From Candidatus Eiseniibacteriota bacterium (lineage in GTDB: Bacteria > Eisenbacteria > RBG-16-71-46 > CAIMUX01 > VGJL01): a stretch of 64,000 nucleotides of DNA. Under the pieces are notes generated by a model. That model saw only the letters and a list, made by a program, of their open reading frames with translations. It had not been told where the DNA came from and made no database searches. Positions 27,299 through 55,736 of the stretch are shown here, in pieces. Within the stretch, counting starts at the first letter, position 1, and each line of letters begins with the position of its first letter. The stretch spans positions 32,001-96,000 of the forward strand of contig JBHGAY010000001.1 of the NCBI GenBank assembly GCA_041946735.1, written 5' to 3'. The translations under genes and the position numbers were made by a program.

Positions 27299-27376
27299 CG
27301 CATCCTCCTGTCGAAAGCGGATCCTGGAAACGACAGGGCCGCGGCGGCCTGCCGCGGCCCGACAAAGAAGAGGGTG

Positions 27377-27450
27377 TGCGCCCAGGAGGAGTCGAACCCC
27401 CAACCTTCTGATCCGTAGTCAGACACTCTATCCAATTGAGCTATGGGCGC
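27377..27450 (-). tRNA. tRNA-Arg(ACG)
   Basis: GCGCCCATAGCTCAATTGGATAGAGTGTCTGACTACGGATCAGAAGGTTGGGGGTTCGACTCCTCCTGGGCGCA; anticodon stem TCTGA/TCAGA; no encoded CCA. Confidence 0.97.
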
Positions 27451-27462
27451 ACCAACCACTGC

Positions 27463-27580: not shown

Positions 27581-27663
27581 CGGAGGGAGTAGGATTCGAA
27601 CCTACGGGTCTTTCGACCTGCGGTTTTCAAGACCGCCGCCTTCAACCACTCGGCCATCCCTCC
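27581..27663 (-). tRNA. tRNA-Ser(TGA)
   Basis: GGAGGGATGGCCGAGTGG...GCGGTCTTGAAAACCGC, variable arm GGTCGAAAGACC, GTTCGAATCC; -10-like TATCAT at 27672-27677. Confidence 0.96.
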
Positions 27664-36674: not shown

Positions 36675-39600
36675 TCATCGTAGTCGGATCAGCCTCCGAG
36701 TCGCCTCCCGGTCCTGCCAGCGGAGGTGGAGCAGATACACGCCGCTCGCGACCGGATGGCCTCGATCGTTGCGACCATCCCACACCTCGCTGTGCCGTCC
36801 CGCCTGCATCGTCTCGTCGCGGAGGGTGCGCACACGGCGCCCCGTTGCGTCGAAGACAGCCAGCTCGACCTTCCCTGCCTTCGGGATGTCGAACCGGAGC
36901 GAGGTCGAGGCCCCGCGGAACGGATGCGGAGCCGGCGGGAGGAGCGAGAAGCGAAGGGTCCTCGCGGTCGCGGTGACGGGGCCGTAGAGCATCGTTCCGC
37001 CGTCGGGCAGCAGAGCTTCGATGCGATAGGAGTAGAGAACCTCGGGCTCGGCGGTCTCGTCGAGATACTCGAACGGGCCCTCCCTCGGGACCGGGCGGTC
37101 GGGATTGAGCGCGACGTACTCGCCGTCCGCCGGATCGAGCCCCTCGGCGCGCTCGAGGACGTATCCCTCGAATGCCGCCTCCCCCACCTGCCATGTCAGC
37201 AGCACACCGGCGTCCCCGGCGAGCGCCTCGAAGGCGGTCAGGTCGATCGGCGTCAGCGGCTCATAGAGGAAGAAGCCGCTCGGCGCACGGAAGCGCGAGA
37301 GACCGGCCAGCAGCTGGAGGTCGTCGGAGAAGGTCTCCTTGCGGAAGACGGCCCCGGGCGAGCCTCCCGTATGGTTCGCGTCAGCGTCGCTGTCGCTGAT
37401 CACCATCCTCCCCACCTGGTCGAAAGCGATCGAATGGGGACGGCGGAGCTTGCGCGACTTCAGGACGGAGACGACGTTCCCCTTGGAATCCAGGCGGAAG
37501 ATCGCGCCGCGCGAGCCATCGTCCGGGATCGGCACGACGTCGCGATCCACGACGTACAGATCGCCTTCCGGCCCGATCGCTCCGCCGATCGGCCCGCGGA
37601 AGTCGGCCGACGCCGCATAGGTCTGCACCTGGCGGGTCGCCAGATCGACGCGGAACACCGCGCCGTTGCGCAGGCGGAAGGCGAGAGGATCCGCATCGGC
37701 GTCGATGACGAAGACGTGGTTCTCGTCCTGGCGCACGATCGCCCTCGGGCTCGCGAAGGCGGTGTCGGAAACGACCGTCTCCACCCTCTTCGTGGCGAGA
37801 TCGACGCGGAAGATCGCGCCCGGACCGGAGGCCGCCGTCAGGTGGTTCGGATCTGCCTGCGCGTCGAGCAGCAGAATCGTGTGGTCATCGACGGCCACGG
37901 CGGAGCGAGGACTGCGGAAGAGGCTGTCCGCGACGAGCAGCTCGAAGCCGCTCGTCTCCGGGATCCACCGGAAGATCGCGCCCTTCGCTTCCGGGTGGCC
38001 TCCCGGATTCGCTTCGCTGTCCACCATCAGGATCGTCGGCGGCTCGGACGGCAGAGCGATGGTGGCGACGGGCTGCACGAGTTGCGAGTCGCTCCCCATC
38101 GCGGTGGTCTGCCCGGAACTCAGGTGGATCTTCCACAGAGCGCCGGGGGTGTTGCCGAGCTCGTAGGGATCGGCATCGCCGTCGGCCAGGTAGAGGAAGC
38201 CTTCCTGGTAGTACACCGGCAGGCGGGCGGTCAGTTTGCGCATGCGATGCACCCCTTCGGAGGTCCGGAGGTGCGAGCGCAGGTTGAGCACGCCCCCCTG
38301 TTGGAGCGTCTGACGCATGCGGCCGCCGTAGTGGATCTGGAGCTGGTCGCCTTGCTCGAGGTCGACTGTCCAGACGAGGCCGTTCAATCCCGTCGGGAGC
38401 GAGACTGTGCCACCCGGCGTCTGGATCGAACCCGGATCGAGGTTGATGGACGGAGGCAGCGTGTCGGAGTAGACGGCGGCCAGCGTCTCGACCGGTCCGA
38501 TGTTGGCGATCTCCGCGGTGACCTGCACCTCGTCGTCCCCCTCGAGCGGGGGCCCATCCAGGTCCTCGAACGTGTACGAGCGGAGTCGCGGGTTCGGGCC
38601 CGGGAAGGAGTAGATCTCCATCGGCGTCGCCAGGGAGGGATCGGCCGCGACCGCTTCCAGCTGGTCCGTTTCCGGATCCCAGCGAAAGAGGGTGCGCGGC
38701 TGGCCGGGCTTCGTCTCGTCGCGCGCGAGACGATCGACGATCCACAGCTCGCCACTCGAGGAGAACGCTCCATTGCGCAGCTGGCGGAAGCGCGGGTCGG
38801 AGAGAAGGAGCGACAGGCTGCGCTGATCGGGATCGATCAGGAACACCGCTCCCCGTCCCTCTCCCCCGGCGTCGCTCGCCTCGTCGATCAGGACGAGACC
38901 GTTGTCCGTCCAGGGGACCACCGAAGCCGGAGACTGCATTTCCGGAAACTGCAGCGTGTCGAGAACCGCGCCGCTCTGCGGGTCGATCTGGAACAGGGCA
39001 CCGCGACCGGTCTGCGGGTCGCCGTCCGGATCGGCCAGCCGGTCGGCGCACCACAGGCGGCCGCTCTCGTCTTCGGCGATCTGGGCGGGATGACGGAACG
39101 CCGGGTTCTGCGAGAAGACTTCGAGCGGTCCGCTCCCCCCGCGCTGCACGAAGATCACCGGTCCAGGCGAATCCCCGGGATGCAGGGTCGCGAGCGGATC
39201 CGTGATCAAGAGATCCCCCGCGCGCGTCCGCAGCAGGTCGGTCGGATAGCCGAGACGGGGATCGGCGATCGTCGTCTCCGACGTCGCGCGAAGGTAATCG
39301 ACCGTCCGGATCACCGCCGGCGCGCCCCCCATCGGATCGGCGAGGAGGAAGCGGCCCTCCTCGATCGGCTCGATCGGCTCGATCGCCAGTGGATCGACCC
39401 AGCTCGAGTCGGCGAGCAGCAAGCTCTCGAACTGTTTCTGGACGGCGTCGACGAAGAACAGCGCTCCCCGATTCCTCCCGTCGCCGATCTCGTCGGCGTT
39501 CATGTCCACGACGACCAAGTCTCCCGAGCCGAGCGGCGCGACCACGCGCGCGCCCGCGCTGTCGGGGTTCGGCGAGTGCGGTCCCGAGATGCGGAGCACA

Positions 39601-42296
39601 CCGAAGACCGGATCGCCGAAGTCGAGCCCCGGCCGCACCCGCGCCTCGAGGTCGATCTCGACCGACCGGCCGAGCGGGACGGGCCCGAGCCACGAGACCG
39701 CTCCAAGCGTGGCGTCCATCTCCGTCCCCTCCGGCCCCTCGGCGTCGAGAAGCTGCAGGTCGCCGGAGAGCAGGACGGTCGCGAGAGCTTCGGGAACGAC
39801 CGCGCGGCCCATGTTGCGGACCGTCGCCCGGAATCGAAGCGTGTCGCCCGACAGGACCGGCGGCTCGCCTCCCTCCACGATCGACAGGGAGCTGAGCGCG
39901 AGGTTGCCCTCCTCGAAGATCGCCACGGCCTCCGGGCCATCGAGGCTCGAGTGCGCCGAGACGATCGAGACGCCCGGAATGTAGGGCCGGGCGGAGTAGA
40001 CCGCGCCATGATCTCCGGGGGGAAGGTGGAAGGGGTTGCCGTCGCGGTCGGTGATGATCAGCCGGCCGTCGCGCGTGAAGGCGACGTCGGTGGGATCGAC
40101 GAGGACAGAGTCGGCCGCCGCAACCTGGATCGTCGCGTTCGCCCGGCGCACCTCGAAGATCGCCCCGGTGTTCGTCCCCAGCCCGAGCGGATCCGCCGTC
40201 AGGTCGGCGATGAAGATCCGTCCTCCCGGGCTCACGGTGATCCCGATCGGATCGACGAAGGAACCGCCCGGCAGCGGAACCGGCTCGACGGAGCCGCTCG
40301 CGCGATCGATCGTGAAGAGCGCTCCGTCGCGCGGGTTCGACCCGCTCGGATCCGCGTCGTAGTCGATGAGCAGCAGAGTTCCGTCGTCCTCGGAGACAAC
40401 GTCGGAAGGCTCCGAGAAACGGGAATCGGAGGCGACGAGGTCGAGAGCGCCGCTCTTCAGGTCGAGCGCGAAGACCGCGCCCGGTCTCCCCGCGAAGCCG
40501 CGCGGGTTGGCGTCCTTGTCGACGAGGAGGAGCTCGTCCGCCCTGCCGTTGGCGATGCCGAGGGGCACGCTCAACTCCGGATGATCGGCGAAGGCGAGCA
40601 GCGTCTCGATCTCTCCGGTCAGCGGATCGAGGCGGAAGATGCCGCCGAGCGGACTCCCCGGCCCGCCCGTCACCCCTCGCCGGTCGAGGATCGCGATCGT
40701 GCCGTCGGAAAGGAAGGCGACGTCGCTCGGCTGCTCGAGCGGCGGCCCCTCGAAGACCACCTGGGGGCGAGGCCCTTCGCCAGGAGGCTCGAGGATGCGG
40801 CCGACCGATGTGCCGCCCACGTTCTGATAGTCGGCCCATACGATCCGGCCGACCTCCGAGCGGCGCGCGACGTCGGCGTTGAGGTCGAACGTGCTCGCGG
40901 CCCGCTGCACGCGCAGGACGATCCGCTCGGAGATCCCGCTCCCCTCCGCGACGTCGTTGCGCAGCCGGAGGTCGTAGGCGATGTCGACCTCTCCCTGCAC
41001 CTCGACGTCCCCGCTCCAGACGATCGAGCGCGTCGCCGGAATGTAGCTGAACGCGCCGGCGGAGACGGAGTCGGAGCCGATGCGGAAGTCCCATGCCTCG
41101 CTCAGGCGATGCTCGAGCGTCACCGGGCGGCCGGCCGTCTGGCCCGTGTTGCGCACCCGCACGCGCACGCGCATCCGATCGCCCGGCTGCAGGGGCGCGC
41201 CGTTCTCGTCCTCCCACCGGACGAGGGAGGAGTCGAGCGCGGTTCCCTGGAACTGGGAGATCCCCGAGAGCGAGCGGAAGAATCCCGAGCCGATCGTCTG
41301 CGTGATCGTCCCGGTGGAAAGATCGCACTGGAAGAGCGCGCCGCTCGCGTTCGGGATCTGAAGCGGATTCGCCTGTTCGTCGAGCACCCAGATCCGTCCG
41401 CTCGGATCGCGGAGCATGTCGTACGGCTCGACGAAGTCGGGAGGGGCGAAGGCCGCCTGCACCGAGAGGTCCGATCTCCGCACCCGGTAGATCGCGCCGG
41501 GCGCTCCTTCGTGGCCGTTGGGGTTCGCGTCCCGGTCGAGGATCAGGTAGTCCCCGTTCGAGTCGAGACAGATCGCGTACGGCGTCACGAACGCCGGTTG
41601 CGAGAAGACGACCGTGACCTCGCCGGTCGTCGCGTCGACCCGGAAGAGCGCGCCGGGAACGAGACCGGTCCCGAGCGGATCGGCGCGGTAGTCCCAAACG
41701 AGAATCGAGCCGTCGAGGTCGTAGACCATCGAGCGAGGCTCGACCCACAGCGGACTCGTCGCAAACGGAGCGGCGATGCGGGTCGTCCCGTCGATCCGGT
41801 AGAGCGCGCCCGGCCGGGTGCCGAGCTGCGTCGGGTCCGCGTCGGAGTCGAGGAGCAGGACGTCCCCGGACGGTTCGAGCAGGATGTCGACCGGGTCGAC
41901 CCAGCTCCGGCTCCATGCGAAGAGCGTCGCCTTGCCGGGAAGCGGGTCGTTGGGATCGATGAGCCAGACCGCGCCGCGGTTCTGGCCGAGACCGTCGATG
42001 TCCGCGTTGGCGTCGACGACGAGAACACGGGCGTCTTCCATGGGGGCCGTGGCGACGGGATCGACGAAGCCGACGGGCGTGGCGAGGAGCCGCACGCGAA
42101 CGGGACCGCCCGGATCTCCGAGGAACAACGACCCCCGGAAGTCTCCCGTCGAGAAGGGGTTGGCGTTCCGGTCGGTGATGAGCAGATTCCCGCTACGGAT
42201 CTCCACCGCGGCGGCGGGGCGCAGGATGAGCAGGACGAGCGTCGCCAGAAGCACCAGCTCGTGGGCTCCCCATCCCCGGGGACGGGACATCCGCAT
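36675..42296 (-). CDS. Large secreted protein: four six-bladed beta-propellers, three DUF11-like Ig domains, C-terminal FlgD-Ig/T9SS-like domain
   Basis: GAGGAG RBS; signal peptide ending AAA; 24 repeats of D-x-x-A-(D/N)-P...GA(I/L/V)(F/Y)R(V/I)D; spacers such as PGDRMRVRVRVRNTG; C-terminal PHPF...LRFDIP...VFDATGRRVRTL...WDGRNDRG..VASGVY. Confidence 0.82.
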   Translation of the reverse strand: MRMSRPRGWGAHELVLLATLVLLILRPAAAVEIRSGNLLITDRNANPFSTGDFRGSLFLGDPGGPVRVRLLATPVGFVDPVATAPMEDARVLVVDANADIDGLGQNRGAVWLIDPNDPLPGKATLFAWSRSWVDPVDILLEPSGDVLLLDSDADPTQLGTRPGALYRIDGTTRIAAPFATSPLWVEPRSMVYDLDGSILVWDYRADPLGTGLVPGALFRVDATTGEVTVVFSQPAFVTPYAICLDSNGDYLILDRDANPNGHEGAPGAIYRVRRSDLSVQAAFAPPDFVEPYDMLRDPSGRIWVLDEQANPLQIPNASGALFQCDLSTGTITQTIGSGFFRSLSGISQFQGTALDSSLVRWEDENGAPLQPGDRMRVRVRVRNTGQTAGRPVTLEHRLSEAWDFRIGSDSVSAGAFSYIPATRSIVWSGDVEVQGEVDIAYDLRLRNDVAEGSGISERIVLRVQRAASTFDLNADVARRSEVGRIVWADYQNVGGTSVGRILEPPGEGPRPQVVFEGPPLEQPSDVAFLSDGTIAILDRRGVTGGPGSPLGGIFRLDPLTGEIETLLAFADHPELSVPLGIANGRADELLLVDKDANPRGFAGRPGAVFALDLKSGALDLVASDSRFSEPSDVVSEDDGTLLLIDYDADPSGSNPRDGALFTIDRASGSVEPVPLPGGSFVDPIGITVSPGGRIFIADLTADPLGLGTNTGAIFEVRRANATIQVAAADSVLVDPTDVAFTRDGRLIITDRDGNPFHLPPGDHGAVYSARPYIPGVSIVSAHSSLDGPEAVAIFEEGNLALSSLSIVEGGEPPVLSGDTLRFRATVRNMGRAVVPEALATVLLSGDLQLLDAEGPEGTEMDATLGAVSWLGPVPLGRSVEIDLEARVRPGLDFGDPVFGVLRISGPHSPNPDSAGARVVAPLGSGDLVVVDMNADEIGDGRNRGALFFVDAVQKQFESLLLADSSWVDPLAIEPIEPIEEGRFLLADPMGGAPAVIRTVDYLRATSETTIADPRLGYPTDLLRTRAGDLLITDPLATLHPGDSPGPVIFVQRGGSGPLEVFSQNPAFRHPAQIAEDESGRLWCADRLADPDGDPQTGRGALFQIDPQSGAVLDTLQFPEMQSPASVVPWTDNGLVLIDEASDAGGEGRGAVFLIDPDQRSLSLLLSDPRFRQLRNGAFSSSGELWIVDRLARDETKPGQPRTLFRWDPETDQLEAVAADPSLATPMEIYSFPGPNPRLRSYTFEDLDGPPLEGDDEVQVTAEIANIGPVETLAAVYSDTLPPSINLDPGSIQTPGGTVSLPTGLNGLVWTVDLEQGDQLQIHYGGRMRQTLQQGGVLNLRSHLRTSEGVHRMRKLTARLPVYYQEGFLYLADGDADPYELGNTPGALWKIHLSSGQTTAMGSDSQLVQPVATIALPSEPPTILMVDSEANPGGHPEAKGAIFRWIPETSGFELLVADSLFRSPRSAVAVDDHTILLLDAQADPNHLTAASGPGAIFRVDLATKRVETVVSDTAFASPRAIVRQDENHVFVIDADADPLAFRLRNGAVFRVDLATRQVQTYAASADFRGPIGGAIGPEGDLYVVDRDVVPIPDDGSRGAIFRLDSKGNVVSVLKSRKLRRPHSIAFDQVGRMVISDSDADANHTGGSPGAVFRKETFSDDLQLLAGLSRFRAPSGFFLYEPLTPIDLTAFEALAGDAGVLLTWQVGEAAFEGYVLERAEGLDPADGEYVALNPDRPVPREGPFEYLDETAEPEVLYSYRIEALLPDGGTMLYGPVTATARTLRFSLLPPAPHPFRGASTSLRFDIPKAGKVELAVFDATGRRVRTLRDETMQAGRHSEVWDGRNDRGHPVASGVYLLHLRWQDREATRRLIRLR

Positions 42297-42504
42297 GTCT
42301 CTCTCCTCGCAAGGCACCGGCGCTCTCGCGCCGCCGGGGCCACGGAAAACGATCGGCGGGATCGGCTCGGATGCTGAGCACGAAGGTTCTTCCGGCCGAT
42401 CCATCTTGGCCCCGCTACGCAGCTTTCGTCAAGGATCGGGGCCCTTGCGGACGACACGTTCCGTGATAGTTTCGGACCACGGGAGACAACCGAGGGAGGC
42501 GCCG

Positions 42505-47631: not shown

Positions 47632-49044
47632 CTAGCGAGCGATGTACTCGATCAGGTCGAACCGGGTGAGGATGCCCACGATCTCGCCTCGCTCCTCCAC
47701 GAGGAGCGCGGGGAGCCGGTCGGCCAGCATGCGCGCCGCGTCCCTCACGGGAGCGTCCGAAGGAATCCGTGGCAAAGGAGCCTCAGCGAGCCGGGTCACG
47801 GGATCCTCGAGATGCGCCTCTCCTTCGAGGAGCTTCTTCAGGAGCGTTCCCTCGACCAGCGTCCCCTCGACGCGCCCCTGATCGTCGACGATCGGAAGCT
47901 GGGAGACGTTGTGAGCCTGGATCAGCGCGAGCGCGTCGCGCATCGTGCCGCCTTTTCGCACGGAGACGACCGGCGGAAGGCCGACCTTCTTCGCGCGGAC
48001 CACGTCGGCGACGCGCAGCAGCTCGGGATCGAGCATGCCGTTGTCGCGAAGCCACTCCTCGTTGTGGAGCTTGCTGAGGTAACGCTCGCCGGTATCGGGG
48101 ATCAGCGCGACGATCGTCTGATCCTCGCGCATCTCGCGCGCGAGCTGCAGGGCCGCCGCCACGGCCGTTCCCGCCGACCCGCCGCACAGCATCCCCTCCT
48201 CCCGCGCGAGCCGCCGGGAGACCGCGAACGAGTCGCGGTCGGAGATCGTCAGGATGCGGTCGAGAACCGAGAAGTCGAGGGTGCCCGGGATCATGTCCTC
48301 TCCGATCCCCTCGACCAGATAGGTGTGGGCGCCCGAGTGGCGCCCCGTCTCGAACTGCTCGCGCAGGATCGATCCTTCCGGGTCGGCGCCGACGACGAGG
48401 ACCGATGGGTTCTTCTCCTTCAGGAAGCGTCCGGTCCCGCTGATCGTCCCGCCGGTCCCCATTCCTGCCACGAAAGCGTCGACCTTGCCGCCGCACTGCT
48501 GCCAGATCTCCGGCCCGGTGGTGCGGTAATGGATCTCCGGATTGTCGGGATTGAAGTACTGGTTCGCGTGGAAGGCGCCCGGCGTCTCGCGAACAATTCG
48601 CTTCGCGACCTCGTAGAAGCTCTCCGGGGAGTCGGGAGGGACCGACGTGGGGGTGACGACGACCTTCGCGCCGTAGGCTTTCAAGAGGTTGATCTTCTCG
48701 CGGCTCATCTTGTCGGGCATCGTGAAGATGGCCCGATAGCCCTTGACCGCCGCGACCATCGCGAGGCCGACGCCGGTGTTGCCCGAGGTCGACTCGACGA
48801 TCGTCCCGCCGGGCTTCAATAGCCCCGCCCGCTCGGCCTGCTCGATGATGTGGACGCCGATCCTGTCCTTGACACTGCCGCCGGGATTGAAGAACTCGAC
48901 CTTCGCGAAGAGGGCCGGGCGCACGTCGCGCCCGACGCGTTGGAGTCGGACCAGGGGGGTGCCGCCGATCGTCTGGAGGATGTCGTCGTACCGGGCGTTC
49001 TTCTGGTCCAAGCGAGAACCCTCCTCCGCGAGCGGCTGCGGCAT
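47632..49044 (-). CDS. cbs: Cystathionine beta-synthase with C-terminal CBS-domain pair
   Basis: IGGTPLVRL, NPGGSVKDRIG (PLP Lys), TSGNTG, NQYFN, GMGTGGT, VEGIG, PDTGERYLSK, then two CBS domains. Confidence 0.92.
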   Translation of the reverse strand: MPQPLAEEGSRLDQKNARYDDILQTIGGTPLVRLQRVGRDVRPALFAKVEFFNPGGSVKDRIGVHIIEQAERAGLLKPGGTIVESTSGNTGVGLAMVAAVKGYRAIFTMPDKMSREKINLLKAYGAKVVVTPTSVPPDSPESFYEVAKRIVRETPGAFHANQYFNPDNPEIHYRTTGPEIWQQCGGKVDAFVAGMGTGGTISGTGRFLKEKNPSVLVVGADPEGSILREQFETGRHSGAHTYLVEGIGEDMIPGTLDFSVLDRILTISDRDSFAVSRRLAREEGMLCGGSAGTAVAAALQLAREMREDQTIVALIPDTGERYLSKLHNEEWLRDNGMLDPELLRVADVVRAKKVGLPPVVSVRKGGTMRDALALIQAHNVSQLPIVDDQGRVEGTLVEGTLLKKLLEGEAHLEDPVTRLAEAPLPRIPSDAPVRDAARMLADRLPALLVEERGEIVGILTRFDLIEYIAR

Positions 49045-49078
49045 GGGCTGAGGCCTCGGCCTCGCGCTTCGCGCCGCG

Positions 49079-50476
49079 CTAGTGGGTCACGCGAGCTAGA
49101 TACGTCTCGTAGTCGTACCCCTTCGCCTTGCCCCATTCCCCGGTATGGCAGGTCTCGCAGATCGCCGAGGCGGCGTGCTTGCGGAAGCCGTTGTTGGCCG
49201 ACGCGGCGACCATCTGGAGGGGGGTGGAGCCTCTCGAGTGCATCGTCCCCAGCCCATGGCAGGCTTCGCACTGGACGTTCTTCATGTCCGGCTCGGAGAC
49301 GTTCTCCGCGAAACCGCCCACAGTCTCCCAGCCGGTCACGTGGCAGCTGACGCAAGCCGGGTCCTTCTCCTTGCCCGCCTTGACCAGCGTCTCGTAGGCG
49401 TGGGCGTGCGGCGTGCTGGCCCACTGCGCCGTCTGCGTCGCGTGGCACCGCTGGCACTTCTCTCCCCCGATCATCTTGTCGGAGGCGAGCTGTCCCTCGA
49501 CGTCCGAGAGCTTCTTCTGCTGCTCGGCGCGCAGCATCTGCTTCGCCTGGTCCTCGATCTGCTTGATCTCCGCGGAGACGGCGGTGTTCTCAGGGAACTG
49601 CTCGTCGAGAGGGGCGTTGCGCGTGCCCCAATCGGTGATCCGGCCTTCGGGATCGACGATCAGGACGAGCTGGCCGATGTATTGCCCGCGCATTCCGGTC
49701 TGCTGGACGATCGTCGAACCGAGCTTCTCGCCATGGTCCTTCCAGCCCGGATCCCGCCCGTAGAGAGCCACGTCGATCCCGGGGACCTTCGTGATCAGGT
49801 CCTCCGACTCCTGCTGCGACATCTGCGACATCAGGACCACGAGCTCCGCCTTCTTGTGAAGCTCCGGCACCAGCGCCTGGGCCGTCTTCAGCGGATCCTC
49901 GGTCCGGAACTCGAGGCCGCCCTTCGGCTGCGAGCGAGCGACCTCGCTCGGACTGATCAGCGAGAAGAACGCGACCTTGACCCCGCCGACTTCGGTGACC
50001 ATGTACGGGTCTCCGCCCGGCTGCTCGGCGCCGTTGCGCAGCACCTTCAGGTTGCTCGCGACCGAATGGATGGGGCTGTTCGCGAAGAGCTGGCGATAGA
50101 GGTCCCAGTCGTTCATTTCGCGGTAGCCGGGCGTCGAGGCCAGGTACCCCATCTTCTCCATCTGCTGCCAGATGAAGCGGCTCTTCAGTTCGCCGACGGT
50201 CTGCTCGTTGTTGAGGAAGTTCCCCAGATCGACCAGCGCCAGGCTCTTTCCCGAAGCTCGAAGCGAATCCACCACGCCGGCCCGCCGGGCCAGCCCGCCC
50301 TTCTGGCTAGCGTGTCACCCACATGGAGCCAGCTCGCCATTCGTGGATCCGAGCGAGAGGAGCATCACCTCGCTGTTCGACTCCCGGTGCCCGCTCCCCT
50401 TCATGCCGGCGCATCCCGGCAACAGGGCGATCGCGAGAGCCAGGCTCAGGATCGCCAGGCTGATCTTCTGGAACAT
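49079..50476 (-). CDS. Predicted selenoprotein: lipoprotein, UshA/5'-nucleotidase-like domain with C-G-U motif fused to a tetraheme cytochrome c
   Basis: GGAGG RBS, ATG 50476, lipobox LPGC (Cys22), GELAPCG-TGA-HASQKGGLARRA continuing in frame into ORF 49079..50275; TGA at 50315-50317 is codon 54; heme motifs CQRCH, CVSCH, CEACH, CETCH. Confidence 0.85.
50273..50314 (-). promoter_or_regulatory. Candidate bacterial SECIS stem-loop
   Basis: Directly 3' of the UGA: CACGCUAGCC pairs with GGCCGGCGUG (one mismatch), enclosing CGGG-CUGG-CCCG whose loop begins about 21 nt after the UGA. Confidence 0.55.
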
Positions 50477-50805
50477 TCCCCAAGTCCTCCAAGAGAAGGG
50501 ATCCCATCCCGTTGCACGGCCACACCATGCCCGTTGAGGTTACCACCCGGGCAAACGTCGCAGCAACAAACCCTTCGGTTCCGTTTCTGCTCCGTTGCTT
50601 TCCCCCTTATCGGCCGGCCGGTCCGTCCGCTCGCGCTCCGCGTCAGCCTACCCCGAGCGCCCCTCACCGGACGAATTTCGGCTCCTTGGGCCTCCGGCGA
50701 CCGGTCCTGTCGGACGGCGCGCACCTCGCCGCGGGCACCGGCCGGGAGGAGTTCGCTCTTGATCATCTCCGCGATCCTCCGCCCCCGAGCCTCTCCTCGG
50801 CCGTC

Positions 50806-53800
50806 TCAGCGCTGCTCGCGCTCGTACTTCACGTCGGGGAGCGACTTGATCGAGATACGGAAGTAGTAGGACGTGTCGGATCCCCGGACCTGGCGGTCGA
50901 ACGACGCCTCCCAGCAGTGCAGGTCGCGGTAGAGCGAGAGCCCCTCCGAGCGGATCTCCCGATCCTGGAGATCGAAATAGATGCTGTAGGTGACCCGCCA
51001 GCTGGTGGTCGGCACGATGCTCGCCGTCACGTTCATCGCATTGGCGATCGAGCGGCGGGGCGCGCTGCGCGAGAAGCTGTGCCCGATGCTCACCGACCAG
51101 TTGCCGATCGCCGACGCCCTGCGCTCCCCCGGCCGGTTCCTTCCCGAGACCGCCTGCCCGAAGCCGCTGTAGGCGCCGGTCAGGCTGTCGCCGGGCGCCG
51201 CGGCCGAGCCACCGCCTCCGCCACCGCCGCCTTGGAAGCGGAGGCTCGTCTGCACGGAGAGGTTGCGGAGGCGCCGCGAGTAGGGATCGTGGCTGACCGT
51301 CCAGGAGTTGTCGATCCAACGGGACGGGCTCAAGCGAAGGTTGTTCGTGATCGGACCCCAGGCGCGGTTCTCGTCGCGGCGCTCGAAGTCGTAGCTGGTC
51401 GTCGTCGTCCAGAGGATCAGGTTGTCGATCTTGATCGGGGTCTTCGGATCGGCGCCGCGGAACTTCGCGTGCACGCGCTGCGTGAGGCTCAGCGAGACCG
51501 CGCTCGCGCGCGCGCCCGAGAGCGAGATCCCGCCGACCGACGGGAAGCGAGAGCGCTCGACGCCCGCCGAGTCGGCGTAGGTCAGGCTGGGGAAGTCCGG
51601 GGAGTAGCGCCAGGATGCGGAAGGCTCGATCACGTGGCGCAATCCCGTCAACGGTCCGACCGGAACGGCGAACGTCCCGTAGAGAGCGGTCCGCGCCGAG
51701 ATCCCCGCGTTCCAGACCGCCCCGACCGCATGCTGCTTGCCGAGGGCGTCGCGCCGGAACCAGGCCGCAGTGCCGTTGACCGACGGCTGGACCTTCAGGT
51801 ACGGCCCGAGCGTCCGGTTGTCGGAGAGTCCGCTGGAAACCTGCGCGGCCTGGTCGTCGCGCGTCGGCTCCCCCCACTCCTTCGTGAACGTGCTGCGGAA
51901 GCGGGAGGAGAAGGTGGCGTAGACGGTCGAGAGGGCGGGAAGCCTCCCGCCGCGGCCCCGGTCGTCCGGCTTGACGCCGACCGGGAAGCTGTTCATGGAG
52001 AAGTCGAGGCTCGGCAGGTTCTGCTGCACCTGGATGTCCGAGGCGTTCCGGTCGAGGTATTCGGTGCGGTCCGCGGTCAGCGAGAGGCTGGCGCTCGACC
52101 AGGCCTTCCGGACGTCGACGTTCGACTTGAGGATGCGGTTCAACACTTCGTCGACCGACCCGCCGAAGGCGCGGTCATCGCGGAAGTTCTGGTCGCTCAC
52201 GAAGTCCGCGCGCGCGCGCAGGCTGGCGCGCTCGCCGAGCTGCTGCTCGTGGCCGCCGCGCAGGTCCCAGCGCGTCCTTCTCGACCCGAACTGCGTCTCG
52301 CGCGCGAACGATCCGAAGAGATCGCCGCGAAGCGAGTAGCGGACGTTGTAACGCAGCTGGCTGCTGATGACGGTCCGGGGAACCCCTTCGTAGTAGTCGG
52401 CCCAGACCATCGCGTCGGCATAGTCGTTGGGCGCCCAGTAGTAGCCGAGGTTGCGCAGGAACCGCCCGCGCGTCCGGTCGAAGCCGAACTCGACATCGGG
52501 CATCAGCACGCCGGAGTGCCGTCCCCGCTTGATCGGGAACACCCAGTACGGAAGCGCCAGCAGCGGAATGTCGTGCAGGTAGAGGACGATCGGGCGCGCG
52601 ATCACGCGATCCCCGAGCCGGATCTTCATGCGAGACGAATGGAAGTGGTAGTGGTGCGTGTCGGCGAGGCAGGTGGTGTAGTCCCCGCCGCGGACGAGGA
52701 GGATCTTGTCGTCGACCCGCTTGATCTCCTCCCCTTGGTAGACTCCTCCCTCGAACTGCGTCTCCCCCGAGTAGACGAACCCCTGCCGCTCGTCGAGGCG
52801 GTAGATCATTCGCTCACCGACGAGCGCGCTCTGCTGATCCTGCAGCTTCGGCTCCCCCGTCGCGACGACCCGGTCGCGCGACGCCTCGTAGTCGACGTCC
52901 TTCGCCTGCAGCTCGAGGTTCTGGTAGTGAACGGTCGCGCTCCCTTCGATCCGGATCTTCTTCTCCCCGACGAAGAAGACGACCTTGTCGCCCGAGTAGG
53001 CGACCCGCTCCGCAGGATCGAACGGCCCGGCGCGCTCGAGCGAATCCGGAAGCGGCTGATCCGGTGCCGCGAGGAACTGCGCGACCGCGCGCGCGACGTA
53101 GAGGGAATCGGCCATCCTCGCGACCGTCGTGTCCGGCTTCTCGCGCGGCAGGACGTAGGCGCCGCTCGCCGCCCCTTCGAGATCGACCTGCTTCGCCTCC
53201 CCGCCCTCGAGAGAGATGCGGATGCGGCGGCCATGGGCGAGGTTCGACCCGACGTCCCCTTCGCGCCGGTCCTCGGGCGAGGGGAGGTAGAGGCTGCGCG
53301 CCTCGCCGCGCACCTCGATCTCGCGCACGCCGGTCGAGTCGAGCCGCGCGATCAGGGTGTCCCCCAGGATGACGTTCACCTCGCCCGGTTTCTGCTCGGG
53401 TCTGTAATCGACATGCGCGTGGCCAAGCACCTCGAGCCGCTCGGCTCGTCCCTCGTGCAGGACGATCGCCATCGAGTCGCCCCGCACCTCGCCGTCCTCC
53501 TCGATCGTCATCGGATGGTCGCGCAAGAGAAGGACGTCCCGATCGAAGTCGAGATCGGCCGACCCGGCGCGCGCCTCCACCTCCTCGCGATCGATCCGGA
53601 CGTCGCCGTAGGCGCGCCCGCGCCGCCCGCCGGAGAGCAGGACGAGCGTGTCGGCGTGCACGACGACCGGCGCCTCGTTCCCCTTTCCCGGGGAACGCAG
53701 CACCGGTGAGCCGGTAATCACCGCGCGATCGGCCACGCGGTCCATTTCCGCCCGTTGGCCGGTGATGCGCACGCTGTCGCGCAGATCGAGGATTCGCACG

Positions 53801-54387
53801 TCCCCGGTCGCGATCGCTTCGCGCGGCCCGCTGCGGTAGACGACCTCGTTGGCGTCGACGATCGACCGGTCGTCCTGCAACCGCACGTCGCGGCGAAGAT
53901 CGACGATCCCCCTGCCGCGCTGGTAGGTCAGCTCGCTCGCGGCGAGCCGCCCCTCCGGACCGTTCCCCGTCACTCCGCCGGTCAGGATCGCGCGCCCGCT
54001 CGCCCTCTCGTAGGTCGCCTGGGCGGACTGCAGCGTGCGCGTCGAATCGCGCAGGACGACGTTGCCGGTCAAGAGCAGCCGGTCCTCCGCCCGCCACCAG
54101 ATTCCCTGGTCCGCCGTGACGACCGTCGATCCCTGCACGGCACGCGGCTGGACGATCCGCGTCTCTCCGGCCGGCGTTCCCTCGAGCGACTCGCCCGTGA
54201 TCGTCCACGGCTCTCCCCCATCGGACGGAGAAGGCGCGGGCGCTGCATCTGCGGATGGCGGGGCGGGCACGGCCGGCTGCTGGCCGCCCGCAAGTCCCGC
54301 CAGCACGGAAAGCGATAGGAGGAGCAGGAGCGCGAAAGAGAGCGCGAGGGCAAGCGGGCGGTCGCGACGGCGGCGGCCGGAACGCAT
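50806..54387 (-). CDS. lptD: LptD-like outer-membrane protein with extended OstA/LptA-like N-terminal region
   Basis: Signal peptide; long run of beta-jellyroll-like repeats (LTGNVVLRD, LTGGVTG, ATGDVRI, AYGDVRI, ATGEPKL); YTTC, ARPIVLY...PLLALPY..FP....RHSG.LMP, LGYYW, LYRDLHCWE. Confidence 0.85.
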   Translation of the reverse strand: MRSGRRRRDRPLALALSFALLLLLSLSVLAGLAGGQQPAVPAPPSADAAPAPSPSDGGEPWTITGESLEGTPAGETRIVQPRAVQGSTVVTADQGIWWRAEDRLLLTGNVVLRDSTRTLQSAQATYERASGRAILTGGVTGNGPEGRLAASELTYQRGRGIVDLRRDVRLQDDRSIVDANEVVYRSGPREAIATGDVRILDLRDSVRITGQRAEMDRVADRAVITGSPVLRSPGKGNEAPVVVHADTLVLLSGGRRGRAYGDVRIDREEVEARAGSADLDFDRDVLLLRDHPMTIEEDGEVRGDSMAIVLHEGRAERLEVLGHAHVDYRPEQKPGEVNVILGDTLIARLDSTGVREIEVRGEARSLYLPSPEDRREGDVGSNLAHGRRIRISLEGGEAKQVDLEGAASGAYVLPREKPDTTVARMADSLYVARAVAQFLAAPDQPLPDSLERAGPFDPAERVAYSGDKVVFFVGEKKIRIEGSATVHYQNLELQAKDVDYEASRDRVVATGEPKLQDQQSALVGERMIYRLDERQGFVYSGETQFEGGVYQGEEIKRVDDKILLVRGGDYTTCLADTHHYHFHSSRMKIRLGDRVIARPIVLYLHDIPLLALPYWVFPIKRGRHSGVLMPDVEFGFDRTRGRFLRNLGYYWAPNDYADAMVWADYYEGVPRTVISSQLRYNVRYSLRGDLFGSFARETQFGSRRTRWDLRGGHEQQLGERASLRARADFVSDQNFRDDRAFGGSVDEVLNRILKSNVDVRKAWSSASLSLTADRTEYLDRNASDIQVQQNLPSLDFSMNSFPVGVKPDDRGRGGRLPALSTVYATFSSRFRSTFTKEWGEPTRDDQAAQVSSGLSDNRTLGPYLKVQPSVNGTAAWFRRDALGKQHAVGAVWNAGISARTALYGTFAVPVGPLTGLRHVIEPSASWRYSPDFPSLTYADSAGVERSRFPSVGGISLSGARASAVSLSLTQRVHAKFRGADPKTPIKIDNLILWTTTTSYDFERRDENRAWGPITNNLRLSPSRWIDNSWTVSHDPYSRRLRNLSVQTSLRFQGGGGGGGGSAAAPGDSLTGAYSGFGQAVSGRNRPGERRASAIGNWSVSIGHSFSRSAPRRSIANAMNVTASIVPTTSWRVTYSIYFDLQDREIRSEGLSLYRDLHCWEASFDRQVRGSDTSYYFRISIKSLPDVKYEREQR

Positions 54388-54389
54388 TC

Positions 54390-55736
54390 TCACCCCTCCG
54401 CCGGGTCGTTCCCGGCGGCCGCGCCGTTCCAGAGCGGATCGCGAGGCCCGATGCCGAGTCGCTCGAAGACCGGCCCGACCGTGTAGAAGGAGCCGGTCAC
54501 GAGGATGCCCTCCCGATCGGTCCGAGCTTGCTCCGCCGCGTCGAACGCCTCGGCCGGCGAGGCGTGGGCGGAGGCGGGCAGCCCTACCGTCCCGCAGATT
54601 TCGGCGAGCGCCTCTGCGGAGACGGCGCGGTCGGTCGGCGGCGTGCAGGCGTGGACGAACGTCAGGCGCGGCGCGAGCGCGCGCAAGAACGCGGTATGGT
54701 CCTTCCCTTCGACCATTCCGACGACCGCGCGCATCGCCGTCGCTCGCCGCACGAGGAGCTGCGCGAGGAGCCGGGAGAGGCTCTCGGCCCCCTCGGGATT
54801 GTGACCGACGTCGCAGATCACGAGCGGGTCCTGCCGCACGACCTCGGCGCGTCCCGGCCATCGGGCCCGCGCGGCGCCGGCGCGGATCGCGCGCGCGTCG
54901 ATCCCCATCTCGGCGGGCAGCAGCGAGAGGGCGAGAATCGCGGTCGCGGCGTTCGAGACCTGATGCGCGCCGGCGAGGGCGAGATCGATCTCGAGCGGTT
55001 CGCGCGGCCCGGGCTGGCCGGGGCGGGCCTGGACGAGGAACCGCGATCCGCGTGGCGTGAGAGCGATGTCGGAGACCCGCAGGCAACGGCGCCGTTCGTA
55101 GATCGGGATGCCGATCAGGCGAGCGCGAGCATCGAGGACGGCGAGCGCGTCGGAGTGGCGGACGGAGACGACGGCCGGAGCGCCCGCGCGAAAGATCCCG
55201 GCCTTCTCGCCGGCGATCGCCCCGCGGGTTTCTCCGAGGATCTTCACGTGATCGAGGTCGATCGTCGTCACCACCGTCACCAGGGCGCGAACCGGCCGGC
55301 TCGCATCGAGCCGGCCGCCGAGCCCGACCTCCACCGCCGCCGCGTCCACTCCGCGTTCGCGGAACCACAGGAACGCGAGCAGCGTCGTCGCCTCGAAGAA
55401 GGATAGCTCCCATCGGTCGACCGTGGGGCGGATCGCGCCCGCCAGGGCGACGACGTCCCCCTCGGGAATCATCCGGCCGTCGATCCGGATCCTCTCGCGG
55501 AAGTCGATCAGGTGGGGCGAGGTGAAGAGGCCGGTGCGGCGGCCGGCCGCCTGCAGGCAGGAGGCGACGATCGCGCTGGTCGATCCCTTGCCGTTGGTGC
55601 CCCCGATCAGGACCGACGGGAAGGTGAGCTGCGGATCGCCGTGCTCGCGCAGCGCCCCCACGATCCGGTCCAGGCCGAGGCGCACGCCGCGCCGCTCGAG
55701 GGAGAAGAGCCAGGCGCAGGCGTCGGCGTAGGTCAC
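54390..55736 (-). CDS. folC: Folylpolyglutamate/dihydrofolate synthase
   Basis: LGLDRI, GTNGKGST, FTSPHL..FRERI, EVGLGGRLDA, IDLDH, EKAGIF, WPGR, DVGHNP, VTGSFY. Confidence 0.95.
   Translation of the reverse strand: MTYADACAWLFSLERRGVRLGLDRIVGALREHGDPQLTFPSVLIGGTNGKGSTSAIVASCLQAAGRRTGLFTSPHLIDFRERIRIDGRMIPEGDVVALAGAIRPTVDRWELSFFEATTLLAFLWFRERGVDAAAVEVGLGGRLDASRPVRALVTVVTTIDLDHVKILGETRGAIAGEKAGIFRAGAPAVVSVRHSDALAVLDARARLIGIPIYERRRCLRVSDIALTPRGSRFLVQARPGQPGPREPLEIDLALAGAHQVSNAATAILALSLLPAEMGIDARAIRAGAARARWPGRAEVVRQDPLVICDVGHNPEGAESLSRLLAQLLVRRATAMRAVVGMVEGKDHTAFLRALAPRLTFVHACTPPTDRAVSAEALAEICGTVGLPASAHASPAEAFDAAEQARTDREGILVTGSFYTVGPVFERLGIGPRDPLWNGAAAGNDPAEG

Follow-up and report, generated by a model that had tools for sequence, protein, structure and literature searches.

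Selenoproteins called UshA-like (COG0737), with selenocysteine (Sec) in a CxU motif, were listed among the selenoprotein families of a 2008 ocean-metagenome survey (PMC2398784), and UshA-like entries are also listed in a 2022 review (PMC9312934) and, again as CxU, in a 2026 paper (PMC13188914). In the searched passages of papers naming "UshA-like", the selenoprotein appears in tables only and is given no function, and a full-text search found no paper joining selenocysteine, multiheme and nucleotidase. Here, we describe such a gene in a 64,000-nt stretch of DNA from a Candidatus Eiseniibacteriota bacterium (assembly GCA_041946735.1, contig JBHGAY010000001.1, positions 32,001 to 96,000; hereafter the window). 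The gene lies at 49079..50476 on the minus strand and encodes 465 amino acids through one UGA. Our analysis indicates that the product is very probably a genuine, exported selenoprotein that combines a dead 5'-nucleotidase scaffold with a tetraheme domain, as a divergent member of the type described by the NCBIfam model NF041198. An initial annotation, made from the letters of the window, had assigned the gene to a recognized class of UshA-like CxU selenoproteins, and the tables of PMC2398784 and PMC13188914 do contain this class.

Results

We first describe the reading frame as read directly from the window. On the minus strand, a single TGA (50317-50315) interrupts the otherwise open frame that runs from 50476 to 49079 and ends at a TAG (49081-49079). 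Its ATG at 50476 is preceded, at a spacing of 8 nt, by the Shine-Dalgarno-like sequence GGAGGA (50485..50490, minus strand). Under translation table 11, the region is listed as two open reading frames (ORFs), one of 53 aa starting with ATG (50315..50476) and one of 398 aa starting with GTG (49079..50275). When TGA is translated as Sec (U), the frame yields 465 residues without any other stop; residue 54 is the only U and is found within A-P-C-G-U-H-A-S-Q-K-G-G-L-A-R-R. Cys52 of the C-G-U motif, encoded by TGT at 50321..50323 on the minus strand, is nearly invariant in the homolog alignment. The frame, start codon, TGA, pair of ORFs and product length proposed in the initial annotation were all recovered exactly.

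A contig from an independent public sequencing run (X2) spans 49848-50900 with 0 differences to the window, and the TGA is therefore not an assembly slip, a possibility that the initial annotation had wanted checked. A second run (X1) likewise showed no difference, although the present DNA may derive from it; runs X4 and X5 gave short or divergent pieces and were left out of the comparison. The assignment of the minus-strand TGA at 50315..50317 to Sec54 thus draws on the read-through translation, the independent run and the comparison with homologs given below.

To examine the conservation of this codon, we searched the window's own genome and 40 related ones, drawn from its family, order and class, in all six frames. 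A homolog was found in all 41 genomes. Exactly one in-frame TGA was present in 76 of the 92 homolog match rows, and the best match carried one TGA in 39 of the 40 relatives. From these, 42 distinct genes were extracted (the top 20 loci and 20 hand-picked regions, TGA-free ones included). At the codon aligned to position 54, 31 of them carry TGA, 10 encode Cys and one encodes Gly, and the TGA aligned with position 54 in every one of the 31 distinct TGA-bearing genes. The in-frame peptide is conserved on both sides of the TGA, with the consensus ...SFGSxxGELxPCG[U/C]HSxxKGGLARRA, and the codon is very probably read as Sec rather than as a stop. One relative (L048) has T-G-U, that is, it keeps Sec and replaces Cys by Thr.

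We also searched a library of 1.84 billion proteins and examined the best 150 of 8632 matches. Among these 150 representatives, 81 have C-x-C at the motif columns, 63 begin after position 54, two match the heme domain alone, and four, all of them heme-less, have lost both motif residues and carry others. C-x-U or C-x-C is thus nearly invariant wherever hemes occur. Trp at position 54 was found neither among the 42 extracted genes nor among the best 150 of 8632 library matches; TGA or Cys predominates there, as had been predicted. At E<=1e-30, the family comprises 403 clusters at 50% identity.

Public gene calls stop short of this codon. The call for this very gene is a 398-aa truncation (P0152), and 72 of the 120 homologs listed begin downstream of position 54, each retaining three or more CxxCH motifs, which bears out an earlier expectation that gene callers would truncate such proteins. 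The source names of the truncated homologs are "hypothetical protein", "multiheme c-type cytochrome" and "2',3'-cyclic-nucleotide 2'-phosphodiesterase". Relatives at 36-48% identity are named "Candidatus Eisenbacteria bacterium" in the sources.

The genome encodes the machinery for Sec insertion. In its 72 contigs (94.8% complete), we identified selA (479 bits), selB (349 bits), selD (388 bits, with one in-frame TGA of its own) and tRNA-Sec (selC; 72 bits, anticodon tca according to ARAGORN), all exceeding the curated cut-offs, so that the sel genes sought on the advice of the initial annotation are present. TGA serves as the ordinary stop in 7 of 10 neighboring Pfam-supported genes, so that the genetic code has not been reassigned in this genome.

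Other matches in this genome touch on Sec. The selD gene (locus L001, G000:C2:108941-109867, outside the window) is itself a selenoprotein gene with the motif A-C-A-G-U-A-S-K, and downstream of its UGA lies a hairpin whose 8-bp stem is capped by a GGA triloop. A match to the cytochrome c assembly family PF01578 (111.5 bits; G000:C41:9202-9759, outside the window) contains one in-frame TGA, which could reflect either a further case of recoding or the border of a gene. A second match to the tRNA-Sec model (L014, G000:C15:47139-47228, outside the window) scored 48 bits against a gathering score of 47 and is probably a long-arm tRNA. Two sub-threshold matches on the minus strand of the window, 27582-27663 (40.9 bits) and 27376-27452 (30.6 bits), are presumably ordinary tRNAs with long variable arms.

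A hairpin resembling a selenocysteine insertion sequence (SECIS) follows the UGA. With the sequence GCUGGCCC-GGC-GGGCCGGC, it occupies 50276..50294 on the minus strand, within the G-L-A-R-R-A-G codons, and consists of an 8-bp stem and a GGC loop, the stem beginning 20 nt and the loop 28 nt past the UGA. We accept this hairpin because of the comparison with homologs, not because of its folding energy. In the 31 Sec forms, which are related to one another and from which the hairpin was itself derived, 89.1% of the pair cells are formed, compared with 28-51% when the partner strand is slid by 1-3 columns, and one stem position varies among GC, CG, GU, AU, UA and UG. The same columns are 60.2% paired in the 11 Cys/Gly forms, a value reached by 67 of 500 shuffles. 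All 27 Sec forms encoding GGLARR[AS] use GCC for the first Ala and CGG or AGG for the second Arg; the Cys/Gly forms that encode the identical peptide, only three in number, use GCG and CGT/CGC. The GC-rich stem-loop noticed initially was therefore found, and it is conserved in the Sec forms with compensatory changes.

Upstream of the motif, the translation begins with a putative signal peptide (50411..50476, minus strand), a hydrophobic stretch followed by the lipobox-like L-P-G-C (residues 19-22, with Cys22 as the candidate lipidated position). Under a loose pattern, a hydrophobic stretch with a lipobox-like Cys was present in 25 of the 42 homologs. The proposed lipoprotein anchor probably holds for the window's order and fails for class-level relatives, which have plain signal peptides and no lipobox-like Cys.

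The C-terminal part (residues 333-465; 49082..49480, minus strand) is a cytochrome c554-like domain, recognized by Pfam (Cytochrome_C554, PF13435; 61.1 bits against a gathering score of 20.8), by alignment and by a motif scan. All four CxxCH motifs that had been reported were located, at residues 341-345, 375-379, 403-407 and 440-444 (49442-49456, 49340-49354, 49256-49270 and 49145-49159). Heme maturation genes are present in the genome.

We then analyzed the fold of the protein. An AlphaFold2 model built on 39 homologs (mean pLDDT 89.2, pTM 0.73) shows a beta-rich domain at residues 35-297 (49586..50374, minus strand), a long linker helix at residues 298-332 (49481..49585, minus strand) and a C-terminal part that is mostly helical or loop. 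The first ranks of a Foldseek search were 5'-nucleotidases, led by the cobra venom enzyme (5h7w, E 3.8e-21, about 315 columns) and including CD73, the Thermus thermophilus enzyme 2z1a and Escherichia coli UshA (1ush, E 6.4e-18). A profile-to-sequence alignment with 2z1a gave an E-value of 2.7e-28, and together these comparisons define residues 35-297 as a 5'-nucleotidase/UshA-like N-terminal fold.

The metal site of this fold has been lost. The metal-ligand motifs of calcineurin-like phosphoesterases, which we take to be DxH, GD, GNH[E/D], H and GH, correspond in 2z1a to HTNDTH, GD, GNHE, SH and GH. In the window protein, these align with S41-N46 (Asp replaced by S44, His by N46), G85-N86, G117-Y118-R119-E120, S217-Q218 and G240-R241, respectively. 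Because every metal-ligand motif position carries other residues, the protein is not a phosphoesterase. Consistent with this, Pfam at E<=0.01 detected neither Metallophos (PF00149) nor a 5'-nucleotidase C-domain. In the 2z1a alignment, motif I and the conserved GG-x-ARR helix are joined by the loop that contains the C-G-U triplet, which adjoins the former metal site.

The best NCBIfam match was NF041198 (UshA_like_PCGU, "UshA-like (seleno)protein"; E 7.8e-62), whose positions 10-269 cover the N-domain and 355-511 the heme domain, leaving approximately 270-354 unmatched. The same model was the top NCBIfam family for 26 of the 27 relatives tested. Two class-level relatives with the same architecture and four CxxCH, L065 and L067, scored 283.8 and 276.2 bits, and long forms of the window's own order scored 178.7-249 bits. 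Judged from these sequence scores, the window protein would represent a sister clade that narrowly escapes the curated model. The fusion highlighted in the initial annotation is real; its novelty was overstated, as NF041198 already spans the heme domain.

The 42 extracted genes fall into two forms. The 26 long forms encode 448-477 aa with four CxxCH (25 Sec, one Cys), and the 16 short forms encode 267-363 aa without CxxCH (six Sec, nine Cys, one Gly). The heme-less short paralogs retain CGU/CGC. At E<=1e-20, the window's genome contains the long form only. Tandem paralogs occur in L043, L046, L047, L035 and L062, either as a long Sec form beside a short one (Sec or Cys) or as two short Sec forms, which suggests that long and short forms work together. 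One short Sec form, L045 (G025:C2:306226-307541), is divided between two overlapping frames, an N-domain with the TGA and a heme domain; this split is a frameshift or assembly error.

Fusions extend the range of architectures. Three library representatives of about 1200 aa combine two UshA-like CxC modules, a DsbA-like domain and four hemes, and the DsbA-like motif is CPHC in P0021 and CIHC in P0046. In addition, a Cys-form UshA-like tetraheme module is fused to DUF1573 or HYDIN-type Ig-like domains in proteins of 680-900 aa (P0050, P0068, P0078, P0048 and P0149).

Finally, we examined the gene neighborhood. Upstream lies an LptD-family gene of 1535 aa (50806..55413, minus strand), separated from the start codon by 329 nt (50477-50805). 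Downstream, 35 nt past the stop, is a gene for a pyridoxal phosphate (PLP) enzyme with CBS domains, resembling cystathionine beta-synthase (47632..49044, minus strand), and farther downstream a Cys/Met-metabolism PLP enzyme that is lyase-like. In a tblastn comparison of 19 relatives' loci, covering flanks of 1.5 kb only, LptD was upstream in 16, the CBS-like gene downstream in eight plus one weak edge match, and the lyase-like gene present in four. The CBS-like and transsulfuration genes are probably co-transcribed with the selenoprotein gene; the conserved neighborhood could equally be explained by a stable housekeeping region. A scan of 48900-50950 returned no promoter-like sites and one weak terminator-like site at 50510-50498, a hairpin with a T-run just before the ribosome-binding site, where 1.0 would be expected by chance. 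Elsewhere in the window, an ORF of 1909 aa (36675-42404, minus strand) encodes NHL repeats, DUF7133 and, at its C-terminus, a FlgD Ig-like domain; this protein and the LptD protein typify the large envelope proteins of this stretch.

Discussion

Taken together, these results allow us to propose how the protein is made and what it may do. The UGA at 50317-50315 would be recoded to Sec by SelB and tRNA-Sec, guided by the hairpin in the GGLARRA codons, and the product would be exported and, in this lineage, lipid-anchored at Cys22. There, Cys52 and Sec54 may cycle between a selenol/thiol and a selenenylsulfide state and exchange electrons with the heme chain. We give about an even chance to such a redox couple in communication with the hemes. 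Thiol-disulfide chemistry is suggested by the fusions that include a DsbA-like CPHC domain, and the T-G-U of L048 fits Sec as the reactive residue. The protein could then act as a periplasmic, heme-wired thiol/selenol oxidoreductase whose target would be a small sulfur or selenium compound or a protein thiol. That the substrate is a small sulfur or selenium species is a guess, made because of the superfamily tie to SoxB and the transsulfuration neighbors.

The presence of the gene in all 41 sampled genomes, kept beside lptD and transsulfuration genes, looks like a core function in this lineage. One candidate role, that of a stand-in for DsbB as the periplasmic disulfide generator, was considered and dropped, as the genome has a VKOR and two DsbA-like domains in one frame. 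DsbB itself gave no match in the window's genome at its 94.8% completeness. The VKOR frame, a single open frame of 679 aa (G000:C45:176323-178134, outside the window), is a fused disulfide-forming system.

More tentatively, and with somewhat less than an even chance of being right, the whole family may represent an undescribed kind of periplasmic oxidoreductase that uses a dead 5'-nucleotidase as its scaffold, in which a strained Cys-x-Sec or Cys-x-Cys center replaces the dimetal site and a four-heme wire across the old active-site cleft replaces the nucleotide-binding domain. If true, respiratory electrons would be coupled directly to selenenylsulfide/disulfide chemistry.

A different possibility, which we regard as unlikely but worth considering, accepts the same selenoprotein and takes Cys-x-Sec as a soft-ligand metal site (for example for Fe, Ni, Cu, Mo or W) or as a heme axial ligand instead of a selenenylsulfide couple. 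CxC motifs bind metals in other proteins. Here, the loop that follows motif I and borders the former metal site carries the motif, and acidic residues in its vicinity are kept, with E120 nearly invariant and D83 also there. Moreover, by eye, there are only three conserved non-motif His for four hemes. However, the heme-less short paralogs keep CGU/CGC, and the motif can therefore do without a heme in its own chain. A thiol/selenol couple is also favored over a metal ligand by the proteins that include a DsbA-like CPHC domain and by L048, which retains Sec without Cys.

It is very improbable that the protein works in the periplasm as an active 5'-nucleotidase/phosphodiesterase, or as a thiosulfohydrolase of the SoxB type, and merely carries Sec. 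Its fold and sequence resemble those of 5'-nucleotidases, it has a weak SoxB match (40.7 bits), and one of the source names is that of a cyclic-nucleotide phosphodiesterase; nevertheless, all canonical metal-ligand positions are replaced, neither Pfam hydrolase domain is detected at E<=0.01, and the SoxB score is far under the 550-bit cut-off.

If the TGA were an ordinary stop, the locus would consist of two genes, namely a signal-peptide ORF of 53 aa and a separate cytochrome of 398 aa starting at GTG 50275. This corresponds to the table-11 reading and to the public call P0152, yet we consider it extremely unlikely. The 398-aa product has four CxxCH but no export signal, its GTG start directly abuts the end of the hairpin, 31 genes preserve the peptide in frame both before and after the TGA, others have Cys at this codon, and the Sec machinery is present. 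A sequencing or assembly error or a pseudogene, with TGC/TGT mutated to TGA, might be suspected in a metagenome-style assembly of 72 contigs, but is hardly credible given the identical run X2, the TGA shared with homologs in 39 of 40 related genomes and a frame that is otherwise free of in-frame stops.

Several observations weigh against the interpretation of the gene as an exported, NF041198-type selenoprotein with a redox role. As for the hairpin, a 76-nt fold of -38.2 kcal/mol is not more stable than shuffled sequences (z -1.87, with 11 of 200 shuffles folding equally well), and a 63-nt window is no more stable than shuffled sequence (z -0.4). As single sequences gave no significant result, folding stability was dropped as evidence. 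The pairing counts come from the related sequences used to derive the hairpin, and the same-peptide codon control has three sequences. In addition, Rfam at E<=10 over 49000-50700 gave four weak matches, with no SECIS among them and none near its gathering score; one of these, to gyrA-RNA (26.7 bits against 45) inside the coding region, was taken as chance. As for export, the Pro at position -2 of the lipobox is unusual, and the plain signal peptides of class-level relatives limit the lipid anchor to part of the family. As for membership, the NF041198 score of 209.5 bits is below the curated cut-off of 275, so that formal membership is lacking, and only 2 of the 27 relatives tested (L065 and L067) pass it. 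As for the chemistry, the DsbA-like domains have borderline Pfam scores (23.1-25.8 bits, with a threshold of 25.6), and P0013, one of the three fusions, lacks CxxC in that domain.

For annotation, the gene provides a clean selenoprotein call and a correction for a whole clade. Every close public gene call of the clade is without at least the first 56 residues, and the export signal and the Cys-Sec motif are lost with them. A lower cut-off for NF041198, or a sister model, would recover the clade's proteins. For the uncharacterized family as a whole, the loss of the metal site, the hemes in place of the C-domain and the DsbA-like fusions together supply a concrete, experimentally testable hypothesis.

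We finally compared the window protein with described systems, beginning with the more distant ones. Cytochrome c554 of Nitrosomonas (1bvb) is likewise tetraheme, and residues 336-411 align with its residues 6-96, including three CxxCH. However, c554 is a free carrier, whereas the corresponding part here is the C-terminal domain of a larger, enzyme-like protein. SoxB (TIGR04486) shares the superfamily, the periplasmic location and an association with sulfur chemistry; the relative L065 reaches 98.1 bits with its model. SoxB needs its dimanganese site, and this site is absent from the window protein.

The 5'-nucleotidases UshA, CD73 and 2z1a share the N-domain fold, the long linker helix, the GG-x-ARR helix and an S-x-N motif. 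In contrast to them, the window protein has its metal ligands and catalytic His replaced, has gained Cys-x-Sec, and carries a tetraheme domain instead of the nucleotide-binding C-domain. A second selenoprotein model, NF049981 (UshA-like (seleno)protein family 2), also describes a UshA-like fold with Sec, and its length resembles that of the heme-less short paralogs of the relatives. It differs in that its profile has 262 positions and no heme domain, in that its motif is listed as CxxU rather than CxU, and in that the window protein scores 37.2 bits against a cut-off of 140.

The closest counterpart is NF041198, which shares P-C-G-U before GGLARR, the UshA-like N-domain followed by a C-terminal four-heme domain, and the alternation of Sec and Cys. 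The window protein differs from it in its sub-threshold score and in the unmatched middle of the profile, and its clade escapes the curated model. The kind of selenoprotein is thus already known, and the present gene is a sub-threshold addition to it rather than a new kind of system.

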